Numbered from the stretch's first letter, positions 46,900-58,987 are shown. The stretch is DNA of 64,000 nucleotides from Octopus vulgaris (GCA_951406725.2 OX597824.1:29450001-29514000); one strand, 5' to 3'. A program made the numbers and translations. The notes: generated from the letters alone by a model not told the origin.

Positions 46900-47380
46900 T
46901 CTTTATATATATAAAACTGAGAATGTGTGTCTGCCTGTCTGTCTGTCTGTGTGGTTCCCTAAAACTTGAGAACTACACAACCAATTTCATTCAAATTTTA
47001 CACATGCCTTACTTAGGGTCCATGTAGTTTCATGGGCAAAAAAAATGTTCAACTTCTTGCCTAGAGCGAGCCCATAGCAATATCATATCTTCTCCACTAT
47101 TTCAGTATTACGTGTTAAAAGTGAAACAAAAACATTTCTCTATTTTATGTCAGATACTTTCACTTTAACAATAAAAATAATAATAACAATTGAATTATAT
47201 GTAGTAAGTAATAATTAAAATCAAACTAAAGTATATTATCGTAACATAACAAAAGTAAAAATATAGCAATTGGTATAAAATTGCATCAATGACTTGAACT
47301 TGAATCAGTGGTTTCACATGAATGGGAATAAATAAAAAATAAAATTTAAGTGCAGAAATGGAATAGTCCAGATGGAGGTG
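46900..47380 (+). mobile_element. Non-autonomous Helitron 5' portion (candidate 3' end at 58958-58987)
   Basis: A|TCTTTATATATATAAAA start, (TGTC)n, CCAATTTCATTCAAATTTT motif similar to the other Helitrons here. Confidence 0.6.
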
Positions 47381-47429
47381 TGCACGGCTTTTACATTAGA
47401 TTATTTGCTAATTAGCTAGCATTAAGCAT

Positions 47430-47445
47430 TCTACTGAGTACCGCT
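47430..47445 (+). repeat. 16-bp target-site direct repeat TCTACTGAGTACCGCT, copy 1 of 3
   Basis: Identical copies at 47430-47445, 52706-52721 and 57982-57997 (period 5276 bp). Confidence 0.95.
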
Positions 47446-47629
47446 TCTGTTAATTGCGTTATTTTTCTGTTTGCGTTGTGAGAAAATTGCTGCCTCCATT
47501 TAAGAGAGTCGAAGTTGTGAATTTATTGTTTGTACCAACTGCTTTGAACAGTGCCCGTTGTGAAACGGTGATTTTCGCCCTACGGGGCAGAAAATTTTGT
47601 ATTATTTGAAATTTGCTACCTTTGAGGTG

Positions 47630-49054
47630 ATGGAGTTCGACTTAACGTCGAAGGACGATTTTCCCGTGATGGGAAAAGGTGAAACCATGGAAAACCCAGT
47701 AACCAAACAGTCATTCTCGGCCGCGGTGGGCGGCGCTATGATAGAGGTCGAATTCAAGATCGAACAGCTGTATGAATACAGGAATCTTGTAAAGGTGGAA
47801 GGAGGAGAGATAAGGCTGGTACCGCCGCAAGCGAAAGTGCAAGAAATCAAGGAAAGGATTGTAACTTATAAAGTGTATAGCTTTAAGGAAAAAAAGATTA
47901 TGGACGCGAAAAACGAAATTGTTGAGAAGTGCCTGTCCCCGGTGTGGGACAGAATTCGTCACATCGCGAGAGGCGCACGTAGTGCTACGGTAGAGGTGCA
48001 CTTCGACACGGCAGAAGTGGCGAAGGAGGTGTCGTCGTTAACCTTAAAAAGCGACGACATCATGTTGTTACCCTCGTATATGGGGAAACGAACTGCAAAG
48101 TTAGTGGTAGATGACATACCCAGAGGGTACGACATCATGTGGGTGGCAGCGGCGGTACTACACAACATGGAGCGGGAAATTTCAATTCTGCAAATGAGAA
48201 GGAAGGAAGTGGTACGCTGGAAGGGTCAGACCTTGGAACTCCTCGTACAGGCAGAGAACAAGATCTTGGAGAGCCTGCCTGACAGAATTTTTAATGAGGA
48301 CGGCACGTCCATGAGAGTGTCGGTGGAGGGACGTAGACCCAGATGCTTCAAGTGTGGAGAGAAGGGTCACGTCCGGTCCAACTGCATTAAGAAAAAAAGA
48401 ACAGAAGAAACGCCTCCTCAAAGTGTACCTGTCACTGAAGGGGAGGAAACAAGCAAGAACAACCAAATGAAGAAGACAAGTACGGAAACGAAAACGGATT
48501 CAAAAGAACCAATGGACTACACACAAGTCACACACAAAAGAAAAAAAGAGAACACCCAGGACTCCCCTCCCCAAACAAGGAAAAAAACAACAAACACAGC
48601 AGACACACACATTAAACAAATCCCCCAACCCTACCCCCATGGCACTGTTTTCATTGGAAAACAGTTTGCCAAACCCCTCCCCATAAAACAAGACATCAAA
48701 AAGTGCATATCGAAAAACGAAAGAATTATAGCCTTTGATGAAAAAAATGAAAAAGTTTACAAATGCTGCAAACTCGCGAGATTTCCACTGTATAGTAGAA
48801 CCTCAGATGGGAAGGCGACCGCTCGTTTCGCGAAGGTAGGGGAGAACGAGTGGAAGGAGGAGGTTCTTCAGGAACACCTGAGGAACCGTCTTATTAGAGA
48901 TGTAACCAAGGAGGTAATGGAGGGTAAACTGGCAATAACCCCGGCAACCACACCCACCCAGAGCCCAGTGGCAACGCCGGTCAAGAACCCTGCAGCAACG
49001 GAAGAAAGGGAAGCAGGCAGATTGAAACTGTCATGCTCCCTCTCGCAACCGTGA
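47630..49054 (+). CDS. ORF1 gag-like RNA-binding protein with zinc knuckle, intact in copy 1
   Basis: CFKCGEKGHVRSNC (CX2CX4HX4C) and N-terminal SFSAAV motif; first ATG at 47630, best Kozak context AACCATGG at 47687. Confidence 0.88.
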   Translation: MEFDLTSKDDFPVMGKGETMENPVTKQSFSAAVGGAMIEVEFKIEQLYEYRNLVKVEGGEIRLVPPQAKVQEIKERIVTYKVYSFKEKKIMDAKNEIVEKCLSPVWDRIRHIARGARSATVEVHFDTAEVAKEVSSLTLKSDDIMLLPSYMGKRTAKLVVDDIPRGYDIMWVAAAVLHNMEREISILQMRRKEVVRWKGQTLELLVQAENKILESLPDRIFNEDGTSMRVSVEGRRPRCFKCGEKGHVRSNCIKKKRTEETPPQSVPVTEGEETSKNNQMKKTSTETKTDSKEPMDYTQVTHKRKKENTQDSPPQTRKKTTNTADTHIKQIPQPYPHGTVFIGKQFAKPLPIKQDIKKCISKNERIIAFDEKNEKVYKCCKLARFPLYSRTSDGKATARFAKVGENEWKEEVLQEHLRNRLIRDVTKEVMEGKLAITPATTPTQSPVATPVKNPAATEEREAGRLKLSCSLSQP

Positions 49055-49082
49055 GTATATACATTTCCTTCTCTCACCCACA

Positions 49083-52000
49083 ATGGCTAAGCTGGGCTGT
49101 ATAAATGTACGTGGAATGGGGTCGAAACGGAAACAAATTTGTTTCCTGAACGACCTCACGACACACAGTGTAGATATTGCTATTGCAACCGAGTCCAAGA
49201 TGAGCGAGACCCAAGCGTTCTCGCCTCTTCTAAATGGTTTCGAGAAATTTATTTCTCCTAGCCGAGGAAGAGGCAGAGGCGTGGCAGTCTTCATCAGGAA
49301 GAGCTTGGACTTGCAGGTAAGTACTGTCTTTCTGGACCCAGAAGGCAGGCTGGTTGTCCTGGATGTGACTCACGTAAGTAAACAGTCCTTCAGGTTGGTA
49401 GCTGTCTACGCCCCGAACGAGGGTAGACAGACGGGTTTTTTCCGGAACCTGGAGCCCTTTTTAGCGACGTCGAAAACAGTAATCCTAGTAGGGGACTTTA
49501 ACACTGTCCTTGAAGCGCACATCGACAGTGTTGGCTCAACCAATAGGAAGGGGAACCCTAGCCTCAAGGGTCTACTAGAGAGCTTTGATCTAGTGGACCG
49601 TTACCGACTGGATGAGCCGAGCGTTCCACAGTGGACGTGGAGTAACAACGACGGCTCACACAGATCGTATCTAGATAGGATATTTATTAAGAAAAGAGAT
49701 AAGGATACGTTTAGTTGTCCACAATTTCATATTGTACCTTACTCGGATCACAAATTTGTGACGTGTGAGGTGCAATTAGACAAGTGTCATAGACAGGGAC
49801 CCGGGTACTGGAAGCTGAACAAGGCTATTTTGAATTGTGAAGACTTCCGTACCCGGATTAAGGTGTTAGTTCAGAGGGCATTGTGTGGCACCATCATTAA
49901 CAATAGATGGTGGCACGCCCTCAAAAGAGCCATTCGTTTAGAGTCCGTCAGATTTAGCAATCAGCTAAGGATAGATAGGGCTAGTCTAGAGGGCGATTTA
50001 GTCAAGAATCTAGACGAGGCAATGGAAGCTGGCTCTGCATCCGGAGTGTTGGCGGCAAGGACGGTATTGTACCGTCACCTTAACTCCAAGTACGAAGGTT
50101 GCAGAGTCAGAGCTAAGCTGCGTGCTGGGAAACGAGAAGGTATTAACGTGGCCGGATGGGCCCGTCGTGTGGAGAGTAAGAGAGGCAATAGAGCCTCAAT
50201 TAAATCTTTGACTGACGAACAGGGACAAAAGATCTATGGACAGGAGGAGATGCAAAAGTTTCTTCACCAGCATTTCGCTCGCGTGTTCGGGGGTGGTGGT
50301 TCGCTGGATCGGGGGAGGGCCTTAAAGGACTTCCTGGCCGGCGGACCGCGGCTCGCGGGGCGTGAAGTGGAGTGCTGTGAGGGAGCGATCACTCCCGCGG
50401 AGATAAAGGAGATACTGGCCGGATGCGCCGGGGAGAAGTCGCCGGGGTTGGATGGTCTGCCCTATGAGTTTTACCAAAGTATGCCGGACTTGTTCGGGGG
50501 AATACTGGCAGGCGTCTACACGAACTGGCAGCAGAATGGGAGAATCCCCAGTTCTGTAAGCCGGGGAGTGGTGACGCTAATCCAGAAAGACCCGAGCAAG
50601 GGGGATAATATTAGTAACTACAGGCCCATAACTCTACTTAATGTAGAGTTAAAGATTCTGGCCAAGGTGTTAGCAAAAAGGTTGACGGTTGTCGTGGAGA
50701 AACTTGTAGGGAGAGCACAGACATGTGCAATTCCAGGCAGGTCGATCCAGGACAATCTTCACCTTATACGCTACACCTTAGATAGGGTGGGTAAATTAGC
50801 CGGCAAAGGTGGGGTAATGGTCCATTTAGACCAAAGTAAAGCCTTCGATAGGGTAGACCATGGGTACCTGGCGACGGTCCTCGAAGCGACTGGGCTGGGC
50901 CCTGAATTTCGCGGGTGGATCTCCGCTATGTATAGCGGCATCAAGTCCACCGTCCAGATAAACGGTTACCTAACGGAACCGTTTTCGATCAAGTGTTCAG
51001 TGCGTCAGGGTGCCCCTTGTCACCACTTTTGTACGTATTGGCTCTTGAGCCACTGCTGCGAAAGTTGGAGAGGCTGGGGAGTAACTCGGATGAAATCGGA
51101 GGTGGGAGGACGGTGACTGCTTACGCGGATGACGTCACCCTCATCGTGTCCAAAGAGGCCCAACTACCTTGTGTGGAGGAGGTTATCAGAGGATACGAGG
51201 CGGTGGCAGGAGCAAAGGTTAACAAGGACAAATCGGTTGGCTTGCGCCTCGGCACCTGGAGGAGCAAGCCGATATCGTCCAGTGTCGTGGGACACTGGAC
51301 GGATGGCCCTGTTAAGTTGCTGGGAGTTTGGTTTGGACCAGACTCCCAAACGGAGAAGAACTGGAGCGAGGTGACGAGCAGGGTGGAGGCCATAGTACGG
51401 ACCTGGTCCGGAAGGTCTCTGTCCCTGAAAGGAAGGGCGGAGGTGGTGCAGATGTTTATTGCATCTGTAATCACCTACCGCCTGACCGTTGTCCCTTGCC
51501 CCGATTCATGGCTTAACAAGTTGGAACGAATCCTTTTCCGCTTTTTGTGGAAAGGAGGAAAGCCACTTGTGAGACGATCCGTTTGCTGCCAAGAACCGTT
51601 AAAGGGCGGGTTAGGGATGCCTTGGTTGATGATGCGCAGACATGCGTTGAGGCTAAGGCACCTCTGGCACCACCTGGAGGGTGATAAGGTGTGGAGTCCG
51701 CTGGCAGAGGGATTTTTCCCGAGACCGGCCTCCTTAGTTAATTTTAAACCCGGTTACATCAAAAGATGGAAACTGACTCCATGGCAAAAAGAGTGCCGAC
51801 AGGCACTCACGCTGATCCACAAGACGGGTAAGGCCGGCTGCGGAAATACCACCTCGGTATTTTATAGAGGGCTGGTGGAGGTAAAAAATGACGACGTCCT
51901 AGGAGGGGCTCTGGGGTTTGATGAAGACCAGCTCGCCAACCTGTTTAAAAAAACTTTCAGGTCGGGGTATTTGGATAATTTCCAAAGATCCCTGGCCTGG

Positions 52001-52471
52001 CAGTGCTACAGGAATGCTTTACCTGTTCGCGAGAAGTTATCGCGGCACGGAGTTCAAGTGCCACCGACGTGTCCAAGGTGCGGGTTGGACGATGAAACCG
52101 TCCAGCACGCCTTTGTTCACTGTCGGAAGTTGTCCGACTTGATAAGTTACGCAGAACACGTGTTGTCCCATCTGGGACGAGTACAGCTGTCGGCTGAGTC
52201 TATGATTAAGATGATACCGCCAACTGGACTCTCGAAGGAAGGTGAGGCATGTTTCCACTGCACGGTGGCAGTGGTAAAGGAATGCATGTGGAGAACGAGA
52301 ATGGAAGGAGCCGCGATAGGGTCCTTCATCTCCGGACCCGGCTTGCTCACTTACTTCAGATATCATCTGAAGAGCAAAATGGGGCTGGAGAAGAGGACCC
52401 TGCCGCGGGGTGTGTACGAGAAAAGATGGAAGGAAGTAGAAAGAAAGGTGGGTGTGAGAAACCCAGCTTGA
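49083..52471 (+). pseudogene. ORF2 (endonuclease-RT) of copy 1, split by a -1 frameshift at 51008-51010
   Basis: Same protein as copy 2 ORF2 except GGG instead of GGGG in the RQGCPLSP codons; may be a sequencing error. Confidence 0.85.
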
Positions 52472-52905
52472 TCATGGAGGAGAGAGAGGAAGTGGAAGCT
52501 GCAGGGCCTCACAAATTGCCGGGGTGTAAAAACGCCAGTGAGACGACAAGGTTACCTACTGTTGTTTGCTATACTAGTTAAGCAAAGGTTAATATTTTTA
52601 TAACGAATTTAAACAATTTTTAAACGATTCTCTTAAATGTTTTTGTATGTATGTCCTGTATTTGTAATTCTGTGTACCGATTTTTATAATCGTAATAAAG
52701 AAATATCTACTGAGTACCGCTTCTGTTAATTGCGTTATTTTTCTGTTTGCGTTGTGAGAAAATTGCTGCCTCCATTTAAGAGAGTCGAAGTTGTGAATTT
52801 ATTGTTTGTACCAACTGCTTTGAACAGTGCCCGTTGTGAAACGGTGATTTTCGCCCTACGGGGCAGAAAATTTTGTATTATTTGAAATTTGCTACCTTTG
52901 AGGTG

Positions 52906-54329
52906 ATGGAGTTCGACTTAACGTCGAAGGACGATTTTCCCGTGATGGGAAAAGGTGAAACCATGGAAAACCCAGTAACCAAACAGTCATTCTCGGCCGC
53001 GGTGGGCGGCGCTATGATAGAGGTCGAATTCAAGATCGAACAGCTGTATGAATACAGGAATCTTGTAAAGGTGGAAGGAGGAGAGATAAGGCTGGTACCG
53101 CCGCAAGCGAAAGTGCAAGAAATCAAGGAAAGGATTGTAACTTATAAAGTGTATAGCTTTAAGGAAAAAAAGATTATGGACGCGAAAAACGAAATTGTTG
53201 AGAAGTGCCTGTCCCCGGTGTGGGACAGAATTCGTCACATCGCGAGAGGCGCACGTAGTGCTACGGTAGAGGTGCACTTCGACACGGCAGAAGTGGCGAA
53301 GGAGGTGTCGTCGTTAACCTTAAAAAGCGACGACATCATGTTGTTACCCTCGTATATGGGGAAACGAACTGCAAAGTTAGTGGTAGATGACATACCCAGA
53401 GGGTACGACATCATGTGGGTGGCAGCGGCGGTACTACACAACATGGAGCGGGAAATTTCAATTCTGCAAATGAGAAGGAAGGAAGTGGTACGCTGGAAGG
53501 GTCAGACCTTGGAACTCCTCGTACAGGCAGAGAACAAGATCTTGGAGAGCCTGCCTGACAGAATTTTTAATGAGGACGGCACGTCCATGAGAGTGTCGGT
53601 GGAGGGACGTAGACCCAGATGCTTCAAGTGTGGAGAGAAGGGTCACGTCCGGTCCAACTGCATTAAGAAAAAAGAACAGAAGAAACGCCTCCTCAAAGTG
53701 TACCTGTCACTGAAGGGGAGGAAACAAGCAAGAACAACCAAATGAAGAAGACAAGTACGGAAACGAAAACGGATTCAAAAGAACCAATGGACTACACACA
53801 AGTCACACACAAAAGAAAAAAAGAGAACACCCAGGACTCCCCTCCCCAAACAAGGAAAAAAACAACAAACACAGCAGACACACACATTAAACAAATCCCC
53901 CAACCCTACCCCCATGGCACTGTTTTCATTGGAAAACAGTTTGCCAAACCCCTCCCCATAAAACAAGACATCAAAAAGTGCATATCGAAAAACGAAAGAA
54001 TTATAGCCTTTGATGAAAAAAATGAAAAAGTTTACAAATGCTGCAAACTCGCGAGATTTCCACTGTATAGTAGAACCTCAGATGGGAAGGCGACCGCTCG
54101 TTTCGCGAAGGTAGGGGAGAACGAGTGGAAGGAGGAGGTTCTTCAGGAACACCTGAGGAACCGTCTTATTAGAGATGTAACCAAGGAGGTAATGGAGGGT
54201 AAACTGGCAATAACCCCGGCAACCACACCCACCCAGAGCCCAGTGGCAACGCCGGTCAAGAACCCTGCAGCAACGGAAGAAAGGGAAGCAGGCAGATTGA
54301 AACTGTCATGCTCCCTCTCGCAACCGTGA
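52906..54329 (+). pseudogene. ORF1 of copy 2, split by a -1 frameshift in an A run at 53668-53673
   Basis: A6 versus A7 in copy 1 just after the zinc knuckle; may be a sequencing error. Confidence 0.82.
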
Positions 54330-54357
54330 GTATATACATTTCCTTCTCTCACCCACA

Positions 54358-57300
54358 ATGGCTAAGCTGGGCTGTATAAATGTACGTGGAATGGGGTCGA
54401 AACGGAAACAAATTTGTTTCCTGAACGACCTCACGACACACAGTGTAGATATTGCTATTGCAACCGAGTCCAAGATGAGCGAGACCCAAGCGTTCTCGCC
54501 TCTTCTAAATGGTTTCGAGAAATTTATTTCTCCTAGCCGAGGAAGAGGCAGAGGCGTGGCAGTCTTCATCAGGAAGAGCTTGGACTTGCAGGTAAGTACT
54601 GTCTTTCTGGACCCAGAAGGCAGGCTGGTTGTCCTGGATGTGACTCACGTAAGTAAACAGTCCTTCAGGTTGGTAGCTGTCTACGCCCCGAACGAGGGTA
54701 GACAGACGGGTTTTTTCCGGAACCTGGAGCCCTTTTTAGCGACGTCGAAAACAGTAATCCTAGTAGGGGACTTTAACACTGTCCTTGAAGCGCACATCGA
54801 CAGTGTTGGCTCAACCAATAGGAAGGGGAACCCTAGCCTCAAGGGTCTACTAGAGAGCTTTGATCTAGTGGACCGTTACCGACTGGATGAGCCGAGCGTT
54901 CCACAGTGGACGTGGAGTAACAACGACGGCTCACACAGATCGTATCTAGATAGGATATTTATTAAGAAAAGAGATAAGGATACGTTTAGTTGTCCACAAT
55001 TTCATATTGTACCTTACTCGGATCACAAATTTGTGACGTGTGAGGTGCAATTAGACAAGTGTCATAGACAGGGACCCGGGTACTGGAAGCTGAACAAGGC
55101 TATTTTGAATTGTGAAGACTTCCGTACCCGGATTAAGGTGTTAGTTCAGAGGGCATTGTGTGGCACCATCATTAACAATAGATGGTGGCACGCCCTCAAA
55201 AGAGCCATTCGTTTAGAGTCCGTCAGATTTAGCAATCAGCTAAGGATAGATAGGGCTAGTCTAGAGGGCGATTTAGTCAAGAATCTAGACGAGGCAATGG
55301 AAGCTGGCTCTGCATCCGGAGTGTTGGCGGCAAGGACGGTATTGTACCGTCACCTTAACTCCAAGTACGAAGGTTGCAGAGTCAGAGCTAAGCTGCGTGC
55401 TGGGAAACGAGAAGGTATTAACGTGGCCGGATGGGCCCGTCGTGTGGAGAGTAAGAGAGGCAATAGAGCCTCAATTAAATCTTTGACTGACGAACAGGGA
55501 CAAAAGATCTATGGACAGGAGGAGATGCAAAAGTTTCTTCACCAGCATTTCGCTCGCGTGTTCGGGGGTGGTGGTTCGCTGGATCGGGGGAGGGCCTTAA
55601 AGGACTTCCTGGCCGGCGGACCGCGGCTCGCGGGGCGTGAAGTGGAGTGCTGTGAGGGAGCGATCACTCCCGCGGAGATAAAGGAGATACTGGCCGGATG
55701 CGCCGGGGAGAAGTCGCCGGGGTTGGATGGTCTGCCCTATGAGTTTTACCAAAGTATGCCGGACTTGTTCGGGGGAATACTGGCAGGCGTCTACACGAAC
55801 TGGCAGCAGAATGGGAGAATCCCCAGTTCTGTAAGCCGGGGAGTGGTGACGCTAATCCAGAAAGACCCGAGCAAGGGGGATAATATTAGTAACTACAGGC
55901 CCATAACTCTACTTAATGTAGAGTTAAAGATTCTGGCCAAGGTGTTAGCAAAAAGGTTGACGGTTGTCGTGGAGAAACTTGTAGGGAGAGCACAGACATG
56001 TGCAATTCCAGGCAGGTCGATCCAGGACAATCTTCACCTTATACGCTACACCTTAGATAGGGTGGGTAAATTAGCCGGCAAAGGTGGGGTAATGGTCCAT
56101 TTAGACCAAAGTAAAGCCTTCGATAGGGTAGACCATGGGTACCTGGCGACGGTCCTCGAAGCGACTGGGCTGGGCCCTGAATTTCGCGGGTGGATCTCCG
56201 CTATGTATAGCGGCATCAAGTCCACCGTCCAGATAAACGGTTACCTAACGGAACCGTTTTCGATCAAGTGTTCAGTGCGTCAGGGGTGCCCCTTGTCACC
56301 ACTTTTGTACGTATTGGCTCTTGAGCCACTGCTGCGAAAGTTGGAGAGGCTGGGGAGTAACTCGGATGAAATCGGAGGTGGGAGGACGGTGACTGCTTAC
56401 GCGGATGACGTCACCCTCATCGTGTCCAAAGAGGCCCAACTACCTTGTGTGGAGGAGGTTATCAGAGGATACGAGGCGGTGGCAGGAGCAAAGGTTAACA
56501 AGGACAAATCGGTTGGCTTGCGCCTCGGCACCTGGAGGAGCAAGCCGATATCGTCCAGTGTCGTGGGACACTGGACGGATGGCCCTGTTAAGTTGCTGGG
56601 AGTTTGGTTTGGACCAGACTCCCAAACGGAGAAGAACTGGAGCGAGGTGACGAGCAGGGTGGAGGCCATAGTACGGACCTGGTCCGGAAGGTCTCTGTCC
56701 CTGAAAGGAAGGGCGGAGGTGGTGCAGATGTTTATTGCATCTGTAATCACCTACCGCCTGACCGTTGTCCCTTGCCCCGATTCATGGCTTAACAAGTTGG
56801 AACGAATCCTTTTCCGCTTTTTGTGGAAAGGAGGAAAGCCACTTGTGAGACGATCCGTTTGCTGCCAAGAACCGTTAAAGGGCGGGTTAGGGATGCCTTG
56901 GTTGATGATGCGCAGACATGCGTTGAGGCTAAGGCACCTCTGGCACCACCTGGAGGGTGATAAGGTGTGGAGTCCGCTGGCAGAGGGATTTTTCCCGAGA
57001 CCGGCCTCCTTAGTTAATTTTAAACCCGGTTACATCAAAAGATGGAAACTGACTCCATGGCAAAAAGAGTGCCGACAGGCACTCACGCTGATCCACAAGA
57101 CGGGTAAGGCCGGCTGCGGAAATACCACCTCGGTATTTTATAGAGGGCTGGTGGAGGTAAAAAATGACGACGTCCTAGGAGGGGCTCTGGGGTTTGATGA
57201 AGACCAGCTCGCCAACCTGTTTAAAAAAACTTTCAGGTCGGGGTATTTGGATAATTTCCAAAGATCCCTGGCCTGGCAGTGCTACAGGAATGCTTTACCT

Positions 57301-57747
57301 GTTCGCGAGAAGTTATCGCGGCACGGAGTTCAAGTGCCACCGACGTGTCCAAGGTGCGGGTTGGACGATGAAACCGTCCAGCACGCCTTTGTTCACTGTC
57401 GGAAGTTGTCCGACTTGATAAGTTACGCAGAACACGTGTTGTCCCATCTGGGACGAGTACAGCTGTCGGCTGAGTCTATGATTAAGATGATACCGCCAAC
57501 TGGACTCTCGAAGGAAGGTGAGGCATGTTTCCACTGCACGGTGGCAGTGGTAAAGGAATGCATGTGGAGAACGAGAATGGAAGGAGCCGCGATAGGGTCC
57601 TTCATCTCCGGACCCGGCTTGCTCACTTACTTCAGATATCATCTGAAGAGCAAAATGGGGCTGGAGAAGAGGACCCTGCCGCGGGGTGTGTACGAGAAAA
57701 GATGGAAGGAAGTAGAAAGAAAGGTGGGTGTGAGAAACCCAGCTTGA
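54358..57747 (+). CDS. ORF2: AP endonuclease, reverse transcriptase and C-terminal zinc finger (1129 aa), intact
   Basis: APE motifs INVRG, TES, VYAPN, GDFN, YLDRIF, SDH; RT motifs KSPGLDGL, YRPITLLN, DQSKAFDRV, RQGCPLSP, YADD; CPRC…H…C finger. Confidence 0.96.
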   Translation: MAKLGCINVRGMGSKRKQICFLNDLTTHSVDIAIATESKMSETQAFSPLLNGFEKFISPSRGRGRGVAVFIRKSLDLQVSTVFLDPEGRLVVLDVTHVSKQSFRLVAVYAPNEGRQTGFFRNLEPFLATSKTVILVGDFNTVLEAHIDSVGSTNRKGNPSLKGLLESFDLVDRYRLDEPSVPQWTWSNNDGSHRSYLDRIFIKKRDKDTFSCPQFHIVPYSDHKFVTCEVQLDKCHRQGPGYWKLNKAILNCEDFRTRIKVLVQRALCGTIINNRWWHALKRAIRLESVRFSNQLRIDRASLEGDLVKNLDEAMEAGSASGVLAARTVLYRHLNSKYEGCRVRAKLRAGKREGINVAGWARRVESKRGNRASIKSLTDEQGQKIYGQEEMQKFLHQHFARVFGGGGSLDRGRALKDFLAGGPRLAGREVECCEGAITPAEIKEILAGCAGEKSPGLDGLPYEFYQSMPDLFGGILAGVYTNWQQNGRIPSSVSRGVVTLIQKDPSKGDNISNYRPITLLNVELKILAKVLAKRLTVVVEKLVGRAQTCAIPGRSIQDNLHLIRYTLDRVGKLAGKGGVMVHLDQSKAFDRVDHGYLATVLEATGLGPEFRGWISAMYSGIKSTVQINGYLTEPFSIKCSVRQGCPLSPLLYVLALEPLLRKLERLGSNSDEIGGGRTVTAYADDVTLIVSKEAQLPCVEEVIRGYEAVAGAKVNKDKSVGLRLGTWRSKPISSSVVGHWTDGPVKLLGVWFGPDSQTEKNWSEVTSRVEAIVRTWSGRSLSLKGRAEVVQMFIASVITYRLTVVPCPDSWLNKLERILFRFLWKGGKPLVRRSVCCQEPLKGGLGMPWLMMRRHALRLRHLWHHLEGDKVWSPLAEGFFPRPASLVNFKPGYIKRWKLTPWQKECRQALTLIHKTGKAGCGNTTSVFYRGLVEVKNDDVLGGALGFDEDQLANLFKKTFRSGYLDNFQRSLAWQCYRNALPVREKLSRHGVQVPPTCPRCGLDDETVQHAFVHCRKLSDLISYAEHVLSHLGRVQLSAESMIKMIPPTGLSKEGEACFHCTVAVVKECMWRTRMEGAAIGSFISGPGLLTYFRYHLKSKMGLEKRTLPRGVYEKRWKEVERKVGVRNPA

Positions 57748-58032
57748 TCATGGAGGAGAGAGAGGAAGTGGAAGCTGCAGGGCCTCACAAATTGCCGGGG
57801 TGTAAAAACGCCAGTGAGACGACAAGGTTACCTACTGTTGTTTGCTATACTAGTTAAGCAAAGGTTAATATTTTTATAACGAATTTAAACAATTTTTAAA
57901 CGATTCTCTTAAATGTTTTTGTATGTATGTCCTGTATTTGTAATTCTGTGTACCGATTTTTATAATCGTAATAAAGAAATATCTACTGAGTACCGCTGTT
58001 AGTTTATTTCTGATCCATAAAGGTCTATAGCT

Positions 58033-58490
58033 TCAACAGAGTACTGCTTTTTGGTTTACCGTAAGGTTTGTTGTTATTATTATTTCTGTTTAACTATTGT
58101 TATCACGTTTGTTGGTTCCTCGTAAGGGAAGCATTGTTGTGTTGCATTTGTTAAATAATTGTAAACCCTAACCCTCCCCTTTTGGGAGAAGGACCTTTGG
58201 TTATTGTTTAAACATTGAATTGTGTCCCTGTTTGGGGTAATTGACAATATTTTCACCGTTTACACGGAAGTATTTTTGTTAGAATGTCTTCGATGGAAGA
58301 AAGTCCAAAAATGAATTTCGCTGCAGCCGTCGGATTGTAGCCACACTTCTTTACAAGCGGGAGGACAAATAACAATTGATCGAAATTACAAGAGACGGGC
58401 TAACAATTCCAGTCTGTTATATATTTTGAGTATTGTTATCACTAGCGATATCAAGATATAACTTTGTATTTTGTATTTTATGTGTAGATG
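58033..58490 (+). mobile_element. Putative short non-autonomous derivative of a related Tx1 element
   Basis: Starts with a 13/16 match to the 16-mer, has a hairpin-rich leader, a micro-ORF MSSMEESPKMNFAAAVGL* (58284-58340) resembling the ORF1 N-terminus, and a T-rich end resembling the Tx1 3' UTR. Confidence 0.5.
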
Positions 58491-58581
58491 TATATATATA
58501 CAATTGCAGCGTGGAAGGTGTTTATAAGCCATTTAAGAAACACGCAAAAGCCGTTCGATTCACTTCAACATTTAAGTTTAA

Positions 58582-58631
58582 TTTGTCAAAATATTTTCGT
58601 CGCTAAAATCCGCGACCTGTTCACTGACAAA
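58582..58631 (-). ncRNA. Minimal type I hammerhead motif, G3-C8 variant (left arm)
   Basis: Reverse complement of 58703-58752. Confidence 0.7.
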
Positions 58632-58702
58632 AATCCGTGCTGCATCCGATGCAGTGTGTGTGTGTGTGTGTCTGTGTGCTACTGGTAGATGCAGCACGGA
58701 TT

Positions 58703-58752
58703 TTTGTCAGTGAACAGGTCGCGGATTTTAGCGACGAAAATATTTTGACAAA
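58703..58752 (+). ncRNA. Minimal type I hammerhead motif, G3-C8 variant (right arm)
   Basis: TTTGTCA-GTGAACA-G-GTCGC GGATTTTA GCGAC-GAAA-ATAT-TT-TGACAAA. Confidence 0.7.
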
Positions 58753-58957
58753 TTAAACTTAAATGTTGAAGTGAATCGAACGGCTTTTGTGTGTTTCTTA
58801 AATGGCTTACAAACACCTTCCACGCTGCAATTGTTTTCGTTTCAGCACACGATCTCAGATCAAATTACTTGCTATGCGAGTACATCTCTGTATATATATA
58901 GATGTACATGTAATATGTACACATATATATACACATATATACATGCACAAGCACTAT

Positions 58958-58985
58958 GACCCGGCAACGACGGGTCTTTAATGCT

Positions 58986-58987
<2 letters not shown>
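58958..58987 (+). mobile_element. Helitron-type 3' terminus
   Basis: Hairpin GACCCG-GCAACGA-CGGGTC, followed 7 nt later by CTGG|T. Confidence 0.65.

Follow-up and report, generated by a model that had tools for sequence, protein, structure and literature searches.

The two LINE units that lie in tandem in the window (the 64,000-nucleotide stretch of Octopus vulgaris DNA analysed here) belong to a retrotransposon family which, we are confident, is real, young and strongly site-preferring. The 16-bp sequence that precedes, separates and follows the two units is a duplicated target site; it lies within a non-autonomous Helitron, and insertions at this Helitron site were repeated and independent. 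Rather than aiming at one fixed target, the family and a sister family probably select start sites of RNA polymerase II (Pol II) and use the landing sequence of the parent copy again.

Structure of the tandem pair

The 16-mer TCTACTGAGTACCGCT begins at 47430, 52706 and 57982, with a period of 5276 bp, and three matches were obtained in none of 100 shuffles. Each LINE unit is 5260 bp long, opens with TCTGTT after the 16-mer and closes with AATAAAGAAATA, and poly(A) is absent (Table 1). An earlier reading made from the DNA alone (the sequence-only reading) had reported exactly this arrangement, with three 16-mers at an exact period and two full-length copies that share their junctions and have no poly(A) tail. 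An alignment of the two units over both 5276-bp periods shows no substitutions and two 1-bp homopolymer indels. ORF1 is open in copy 1 (474 aa), where ORF2 is frameshifted, and ORF2 is open in copy 2 (1129 aa), where ORF1 is frameshifted. At 51007, contigs from all four sequencing runs examined carry the additional G seen in copy 2, so that the ORF2 break in copy 1 is probably a consensus error or a private variant. These run data consist of contigs only, and the 15 joints shown, out of 91, do not include the tandem joint of the window pair.

Pfam identifies an APE endonuclease (PF03372), a reverse transcriptase (RT, PF00078) and a zf-RVT domain (PF13966) in ORF2, and one CCHC zinc knuckle (PF00098) in ORF1. 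Among known structures, the endonuclease matches those of LINE-1 only. The combination of ORF1 with an ORF2 that has an N-terminal APE domain, an RT and a C-terminal zinc-binding domain is that of L1/Tx1-type non-LTR retrotransposons, and the family shows target-site duplications, 5'-truncated copies and no LTR. From these features the element is classified as an L1/Tx1-type LINE, with the Tx1 clade proper as a candidate; none of the 17 homologues found bears a family name.

Table 1. Features of the tandem pair and of its host Helitron (window coordinates)
Feature	Position	Strand	Remarks
Non-autonomous Helitron bearing the target, ~1.1 kb without insertions	46900..58987	+	5' TC after A; 3' hairpin, CTRR before T
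Target-site duplication copy 1, 16 bp	47430..47445	+	
LINE unit 1, 5260 bp	47446..52705	+	
Unit 1 ORF1, 474 aa, one CCHC zinc knuckle	47630..49054	+	
Unit 1 ORF2, frame broken by 1-bp homopolymer indel near 51007	49083..52471	+	
Unit 1 AATAAA, 6 bases short of unit end	52694..52699	+	sequence
Duplication copy 2 (tandem junction), 16 bp	52706..52721	+	
LINE unit 2, 5260 bp	52722..57981	+	
Unit 2 ORF1, frame broken by 1-bp homopolymer indel near 53668	52906..54329	+	
Unit 2 ORF2, 1129 aa: APE endonuclease, reverse transcriptase, zf-RVT	54358..57747	+	
Unit 2 AATAAA, 6 bases short of unit end	57970..57975	+	
Duplication copy 3, 16 bp	57982..57997	+	
Helitron cargo, from a related element of greater age: 5' UTR and beginning of ORF1 (ATG 58293), internal deletion here	57998..58420	+	
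13/16 copy of the 16-mer within the Helitron cargo	58033-58048	+	
Palindromic MITE-like insertion, absent from other Helitron copies compared	58500..58890	undefined	
Helitron 3' hairpin and CTGG end	58958..58987	+	

The target site and its host Helitron

The exact 16-mer occurs 73 times in the 2.8-Gb genome, and its reversed control once. A count of empty sites, as the sequence-only reading had proposed, gave 14 among the first 30 matches of the 16-mer. All 14 are alike over ~540 bp upstream and ~500 bp downstream. This host repeat begins with TC after an A and closes with a hairpin and CTAG before a T; the 5' end is found in 10 and the hairpin end in nine of the 14 empty copies (1.5 kb examined for each), and both ends are found in the window. 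We take these end rules (TC after A; hairpin and CTRR before T) to identify the repeat as a Helitron, and the full set of features of a non-autonomous member is present, namely 5' TC, 3' hairpin with CTRR, insertion between A and T, and neither terminal inverted repeats nor a duplication. A 23-mer adjoining the site has 89 matches, which puts the number of Helitron copies at 89 at least. Directly 3' of the 16-mer the Helitron carries a captured piece of a related but older element, namely its 5' UTR and the beginning of its ORF1; the cargo of a longer Helitron copy (L014) is 33% identical to ORF1 residues 32-191 (162 aa, E 1e-28). Copies elsewhere of the MITE-like palindrome that interrupts the window Helitron are targeted by related LINEs (L153, L155, L156, L270).

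Two other readings of the 16-mer were rejected. It is not a part of the element, since full-length dispersed copies lack it; most of the dispersed loci have their own duplications, and the 16-mer is thus a true duplication of a strongly preferred, non-exclusive target. RNA genes are known as targets among Tx1 elements (U2, U5, 5S and tRNA). Rfam gives no gathering-score match in the window, and of 82 weak matches in three empty loci none overlaps the site, in line with the initial impression that the empty site resembles no known RNA-gene target.

A thirteenth Helitron is occupied at the identical 16-mer by a 1659-bp ORF1-only element of a different family (L080:3561-5219). A second insertion hot spot of ORF1-only elements lies within an ORF1-like piece of the same Helitron family (L259, L296, L303).

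Family census and target preference

Members of the family were counted by an exact 20-nt 3'-end motif, a definition that places older copies having lost this motif outside the census. It gave 44 junctions, one of which (C9:58.89 Mb) has no element and was dropped. The other 43 units are distributed over 24 loci. Twenty-three units in 12 loci, comprising six arrays of 2-6 units and six single copies, occupy the Helitron 16-mer and have an identical start base. Nine of the remaining junctions fall in a second array on C9 and 11 are dispersed. The C9 array (C9:59203900-59253400, L081-L086) has at least 10 units, the tenth of which reaches an assembly gap; its 16-bp duplication is a different one, and one young unit is found among older ones. 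Among the dispersed loci, 8/11 have their own duplication of 15-19 bp and 0/11 have the 16-mer, and TCT(A/T) opens nine of the 11 junctions. No common sequence beyond TCTW is visible at the sites, and a search for a shared hairpin found z below -2 in just one of 13 folded sites. Both ORFs are open in 4/39 near-full units, so that the family is young enough for testing, and the youngest units differ by 0-9 bases over 5.26 kb.

According to the criterion of Kojima, a family is 'target specific' when more than 20% of its flanks are of one sequence type (PMC4494074, available text); here 12/24 loci and 23/43 units share one. The sequence-only reading had proposed a very young, recently active, site-specific element whose target was unfamiliar. 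Youth and strong preference were confirmed by the census. Strict specificity, with essentially every copy at one sequence, was not found: 12 of the 24 loci lie at unrelated sequences, an outcome that the same reading had named as evidence against itself and which applies in part, the 16-mer being present at 23 of the 43 3' junctions.

One explanation of this preference is that it is encoded by the endonuclease as in Tx1L, with the APE domain reading the Helitron site and the other sites representing off-target nicks at TCT(A/T). It would account for one site holding half of the loci, for the TCT(A/T) opening of the dispersed junctions and for the element of a different family at the identical 16-mer, and the Tx1L endonuclease nicks its own site almost exclusively (PMC1950540, available text). 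However, near-identical elements are found at unrelated sites that show no visible consensus past TCTW, an array of at least 10 units has grown at a different duplication, and both the TATA spacing and the junction bases differing from the target, described below, are left unexplained. We therefore consider specificity of the endonuclease unlikely as the source of the preference.

Sister family and related elements

The sister family shares ~87% DNA identity with the family in the window, and one main site accounts for 16 of its 30 loci. It inserts chiefly at the 5' ends of C2H2 zinc-finger genes. Six main or related sites were checked, and all six are located 1.3-4.3 kb upstream of C2H2 arrays on the sense strand, with a splice donor 240-370 bp in at the five C2H2 sites scanned, and a sense C2H2 array was absent from the 15 other flanks scanned alongside. 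In the window family, one dispersed site also precedes a sense C2H2 ORF. Sister copies are found at the 5' ends of clustered C2H2 genes at C27:22.8-26.3 Mb and C2:14.65-14.72 Mb (L193-L215, L315-L319), and some of the copies at such clusters may have spread via gene duplications.

Several non-autonomous ORF1-only families of 1.65-1.9 kb (L080:3561-5219, L133-L162, L259-L314) have a common AATAAAGAAAT end, and many of them are arranged in tandem arrays; one 25-nt end motif has 207 matches. At C6:120419330-120423947, ~30 copies of a 159-bp satellite unit contain the 3' end of an ORF1-only-type element. A young and abundant element whose long inverted ends are separated by 1.5-2.2 kb (L100-L129) is unrelated to the LINE. 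In run X14, from a second organism, close relatives of the LINE occur across all 30 bins.

A TATA-like motif upstream of the insertion sites

TATAWAWR is the consensus for the TATA box. We scored it with at most one mismatch, starting at -34 to -26 on the strand of the element, and excluded sites without a recognisable duplication (two in the window family, six in the sister family and 29 of 56 in more distant families). After tandem-internal and redundant sites were collapsed, with some counted sites still related, the motif was found at 17/31 sites, with a peak at -30 and counts of 0-4 in other 9-bp windows. It precedes 6/10 sites of the window family, whose sites had been viewed before scoring interval and motif were picked, 6/11 sites of the sister family, whose flanks were fetched after the idea arose, and 5/11 sites of the ORF1-only elements; at random genomic positions its frequency is 12.9%. 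For each of the two families, 0/1501 shuffles were as high, and when any window was allowed, 0 (window family) and 1 (sister family) of 1501 shuffles reached the count.

A test on the more distant families, stated beforehand, gave the motif at 4/21 non-redundant sites, with 142/2000 shuffles as high, which is background; this set comprised 56 loci with duplications in 27, mostly 5'-truncated copies and mixed families. A TATA rule across all related families was thus rejected. The Helitron variant in the window has no TATA at -30, while another variant does (L013, L026, L028, L029). A fixed spacing to a promoter element may be a feature of the window and sister families; it is seen neither in the distant families nor at the window site. 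The motif also stands before the unrelated, apparently unique sites C2_134, C9_77, L239, L240 and L208. Initiator motifs at the nick, inspected by eye, show no steady register.

The targets at L093, L097 and L134 have in common a promoter-like CCAAT-TATA arrangement and, immediately 3' of the insertion, a short hairpin in which changes are paired. A dispersed repeat with TATA at -29 is the common target of one sister sub-lineage (L243-L251).

Junction bases and possible RNA templating

The first junction bases track lineage in a tree of the 3' ends, and several copies have bases here that agree with those of relatives and not with the duplication at their own 5' end. The last duplication differs from the upstream ones in three of the 12 Helitron loci, one junction contains an additional 13-nt piece of the 16-mer, and three copies, read by eye, have 5' heads that open with 6-7 bases of their own duplication. 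Cleavage of transcripts ordinarily takes place 10-30 nt downstream of AATAAA. With AATAAA six bases before the unit end, ordinary cleavage would fall in the 3' duplication. The lineage-typical junction bases could also be simply the 3' end of the element itself.

These bases would be expected if memory in the RNA flank acted alone, that is, if read-through pairing with the duplication of the parent produced both the Helitron insertions and the arrays, and TATA merely reflected promoter-borne copies becoming parents. The window site without TATA and the failed test in distant families also point this way. Against it, TATA stands before unrelated unique sites, which are beyond parental memory, and what the TATA count enumerates is copies, whether or not they became parents. 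RNA memory on its own thus seems a rather doubtful explanation, and we favour the combination of RNA memory and attraction to start sites.

Formation of the arrays

Neighbouring units of the C27 array are 197-198 substitutions apart. Unit 2 of the C1b array differs by 53 substitutions from its neighbour and by only 2 and 1 from copies on C9 and C27, and unit 4 of the C5 array by 15 from a dispersed copy versus 46-50 from its array neighbours. Array members are thus up to 198 substitutions apart, yet within 1-2 of copies elsewhere. Among the 12 filled loci, Helitron flanks are 96.2% alike in 66 pairwise comparisons (94.8-97.7), and in a tree they are intermixed with the 14 empty copies. The mixed subtypes in several arrays and the flanks, which are far older than the elements, together establish repeated, independent insertion. 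They also substantiate the earlier suggestion that the arrays arose by re-insertion at a regenerated target. Hitchhiking of the LINEs on the Helitron was rejected because the flanks are much older than the inserted units.

Arrays occur at many unrelated duplications and between diverged subfamilies, and in one example a truncated copy lies within the 5' duplication of an older copy to which it is only 89.7% alike. Such cases would fit a machinery that picks out the 5' end of an element of the group already in place (the Helitron-captured piece included) and inserts immediately before it. Self-targeting of this kind leaves the first insertions at TATA sites and C2H2 gene starts uncovered and would be a special case of start-site choice, should the machinery be recognising the start site of the element itself; we consider it improbable. 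As the origin of the window pair, a dimeric RNA, unequal crossover, hitchhiking on the Helitron or an erroneous duplication in the assembly is very improbable. Units at other loci are equally close (1 substitution), five further arrays occupy the same site, three of them with mixed subtypes, and flank age contradicts hitchhiking. On the other side, the window units show no substitutions, their junction is known from the assembly, and the C9 array seems to contain duplicated parts, with differences of 6 between units 1/4 and of 2 between units 2/5; local duplication or artefact can hold for the window pair, not for the family.

Proposed mechanism

Attraction to Pol II start sites combined with priming by read-through RNA that pairs with the target is the mechanism we favour, at about even odds. 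We infer each of its steps; what is observed is the anatomy, the filled Helitron sites, the mixed arrays, the other sites with their own duplications, the TATA-like motif ~30 bp upstream of many sites and the C2H2 positions of the sister family. The family would be drawn to Pol II start sites, where its endonuclease would nick the template strand at about the start site. The RNA would end inside the 3' duplication, not with poly(A) at AAAGAAATA, and would pair with the nicked strand, so that no poly(A) would be copied. Transcription would begin near the left edge of the 5' duplication; the head of the RNA would therefore carry the duplication and join a matching site seamlessly. Every insertion would in this way recreate a start site with matching sequence, which would lead to arrays and would allow a parent within a repeat to seed the remaining members of that repeat family. 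The Helitron site itself would be a start site, since the captured 5' UTR of the older element comes next.

More broadly, and tentatively, an animal LINE group may insert with base-level spacing into Pol II start sites (its own, those of transposon promoters and those of C2H2 genes) and inherit its preference via RNA copies of the last duplication. If so, 'target-specific families' could arise and switch without any change of the endonuclease. This would provide a route for target switching by LINEs and possibly an RNA-reprogrammable insertion system, and would also mean a mutagen aimed at the 5' ends of the expanded C2H2 zinc-finger family. On its own, a target carried by a Helitron would simply lengthen the list of Tx1 targets by one; the broader pattern is of greater importance.

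Comparison with known systems

Tx1 families that target DNA transposons have been described, as have tandem copies with a 16-bp duplication between them. Tx1L of Xenopus targets Tx1D, Tx1-Mar and Tx1-9_AMi of crocodilians target Mariner-N4_AMi and Harbinger, and tandem copies of SINEU-3 sandwich a 16-bp duplication (PMC4494074, available text). Our search of the literature found no Helitron-targeting Tx1 and no LINE at a fixed Pol II TATA spacing; most subscription papers and Repbase Reports, which may describe such elements, lay outside its scope. A recent repeat annotation of the octopus counts 13 L1-Tx1 families with recent activity, and neither 'target' nor 'promoter' occurs in its available text (PMC13282606).

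Like Tx1L, Tx1-Mar and Tx1-9_AMi, the octopus element is an APE-RT LINE that prefers a site within a DNA transposon. In contrast to them, its host repeat is a Helitron, a term with 0 mentions in the available text of PMC4494074; furthermore, half of its loci are elsewhere, many of its sites have a TATA spacing and not a sequence in common, and its sister is found at C2H2 starts. A bias toward Pol II promoters is described for Tf1, the P element and the I-element, with broad windows of 100-500 bp and, for the I-element, a 1.74-fold bias ~150 bp upstream; a base-level TATA spacing is not described in the available text of these sources (PMC7175516, PMC10018349).

Position-specific insertion set by the transcription machinery, as proposed for the octopus family, is known from TRE5, TRE3 and NLTR-A of the Dictyostelium L1 clade and from Ty3, and ORF1 of Dictyostelium TRE5-A binds TFIIIB including TBP (PMC5911963, available text). 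The targets there are Pol III genes, whereas those of the octopus family would be TATA-bearing Pol II promoters of an animal, with ~30 bp as the spacing. HeT-A and TAHRE likewise form head-to-tail arrays, in which the next unit obtains its start from sequence upstream of it (PMC5537684, available text), but they do so at telomere ends and without duplication of a nicked site.

For R2Ol, annealing of read-through RNA to the target raises insertion (PMC6530143, available text), and R1 arrays, with units separated by the duplication, formed by double insertion (PMC5932611, available text). The likeness to R1 and R2 lies in arrays with the duplication between units and, in the proposed mechanism, in target sequence at the 3' end of the RNA that would aid insertion. 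The difference is that their rDNA target is fixed, whereas in the octopus family the pairing sequence would change with the landing site of the parent.
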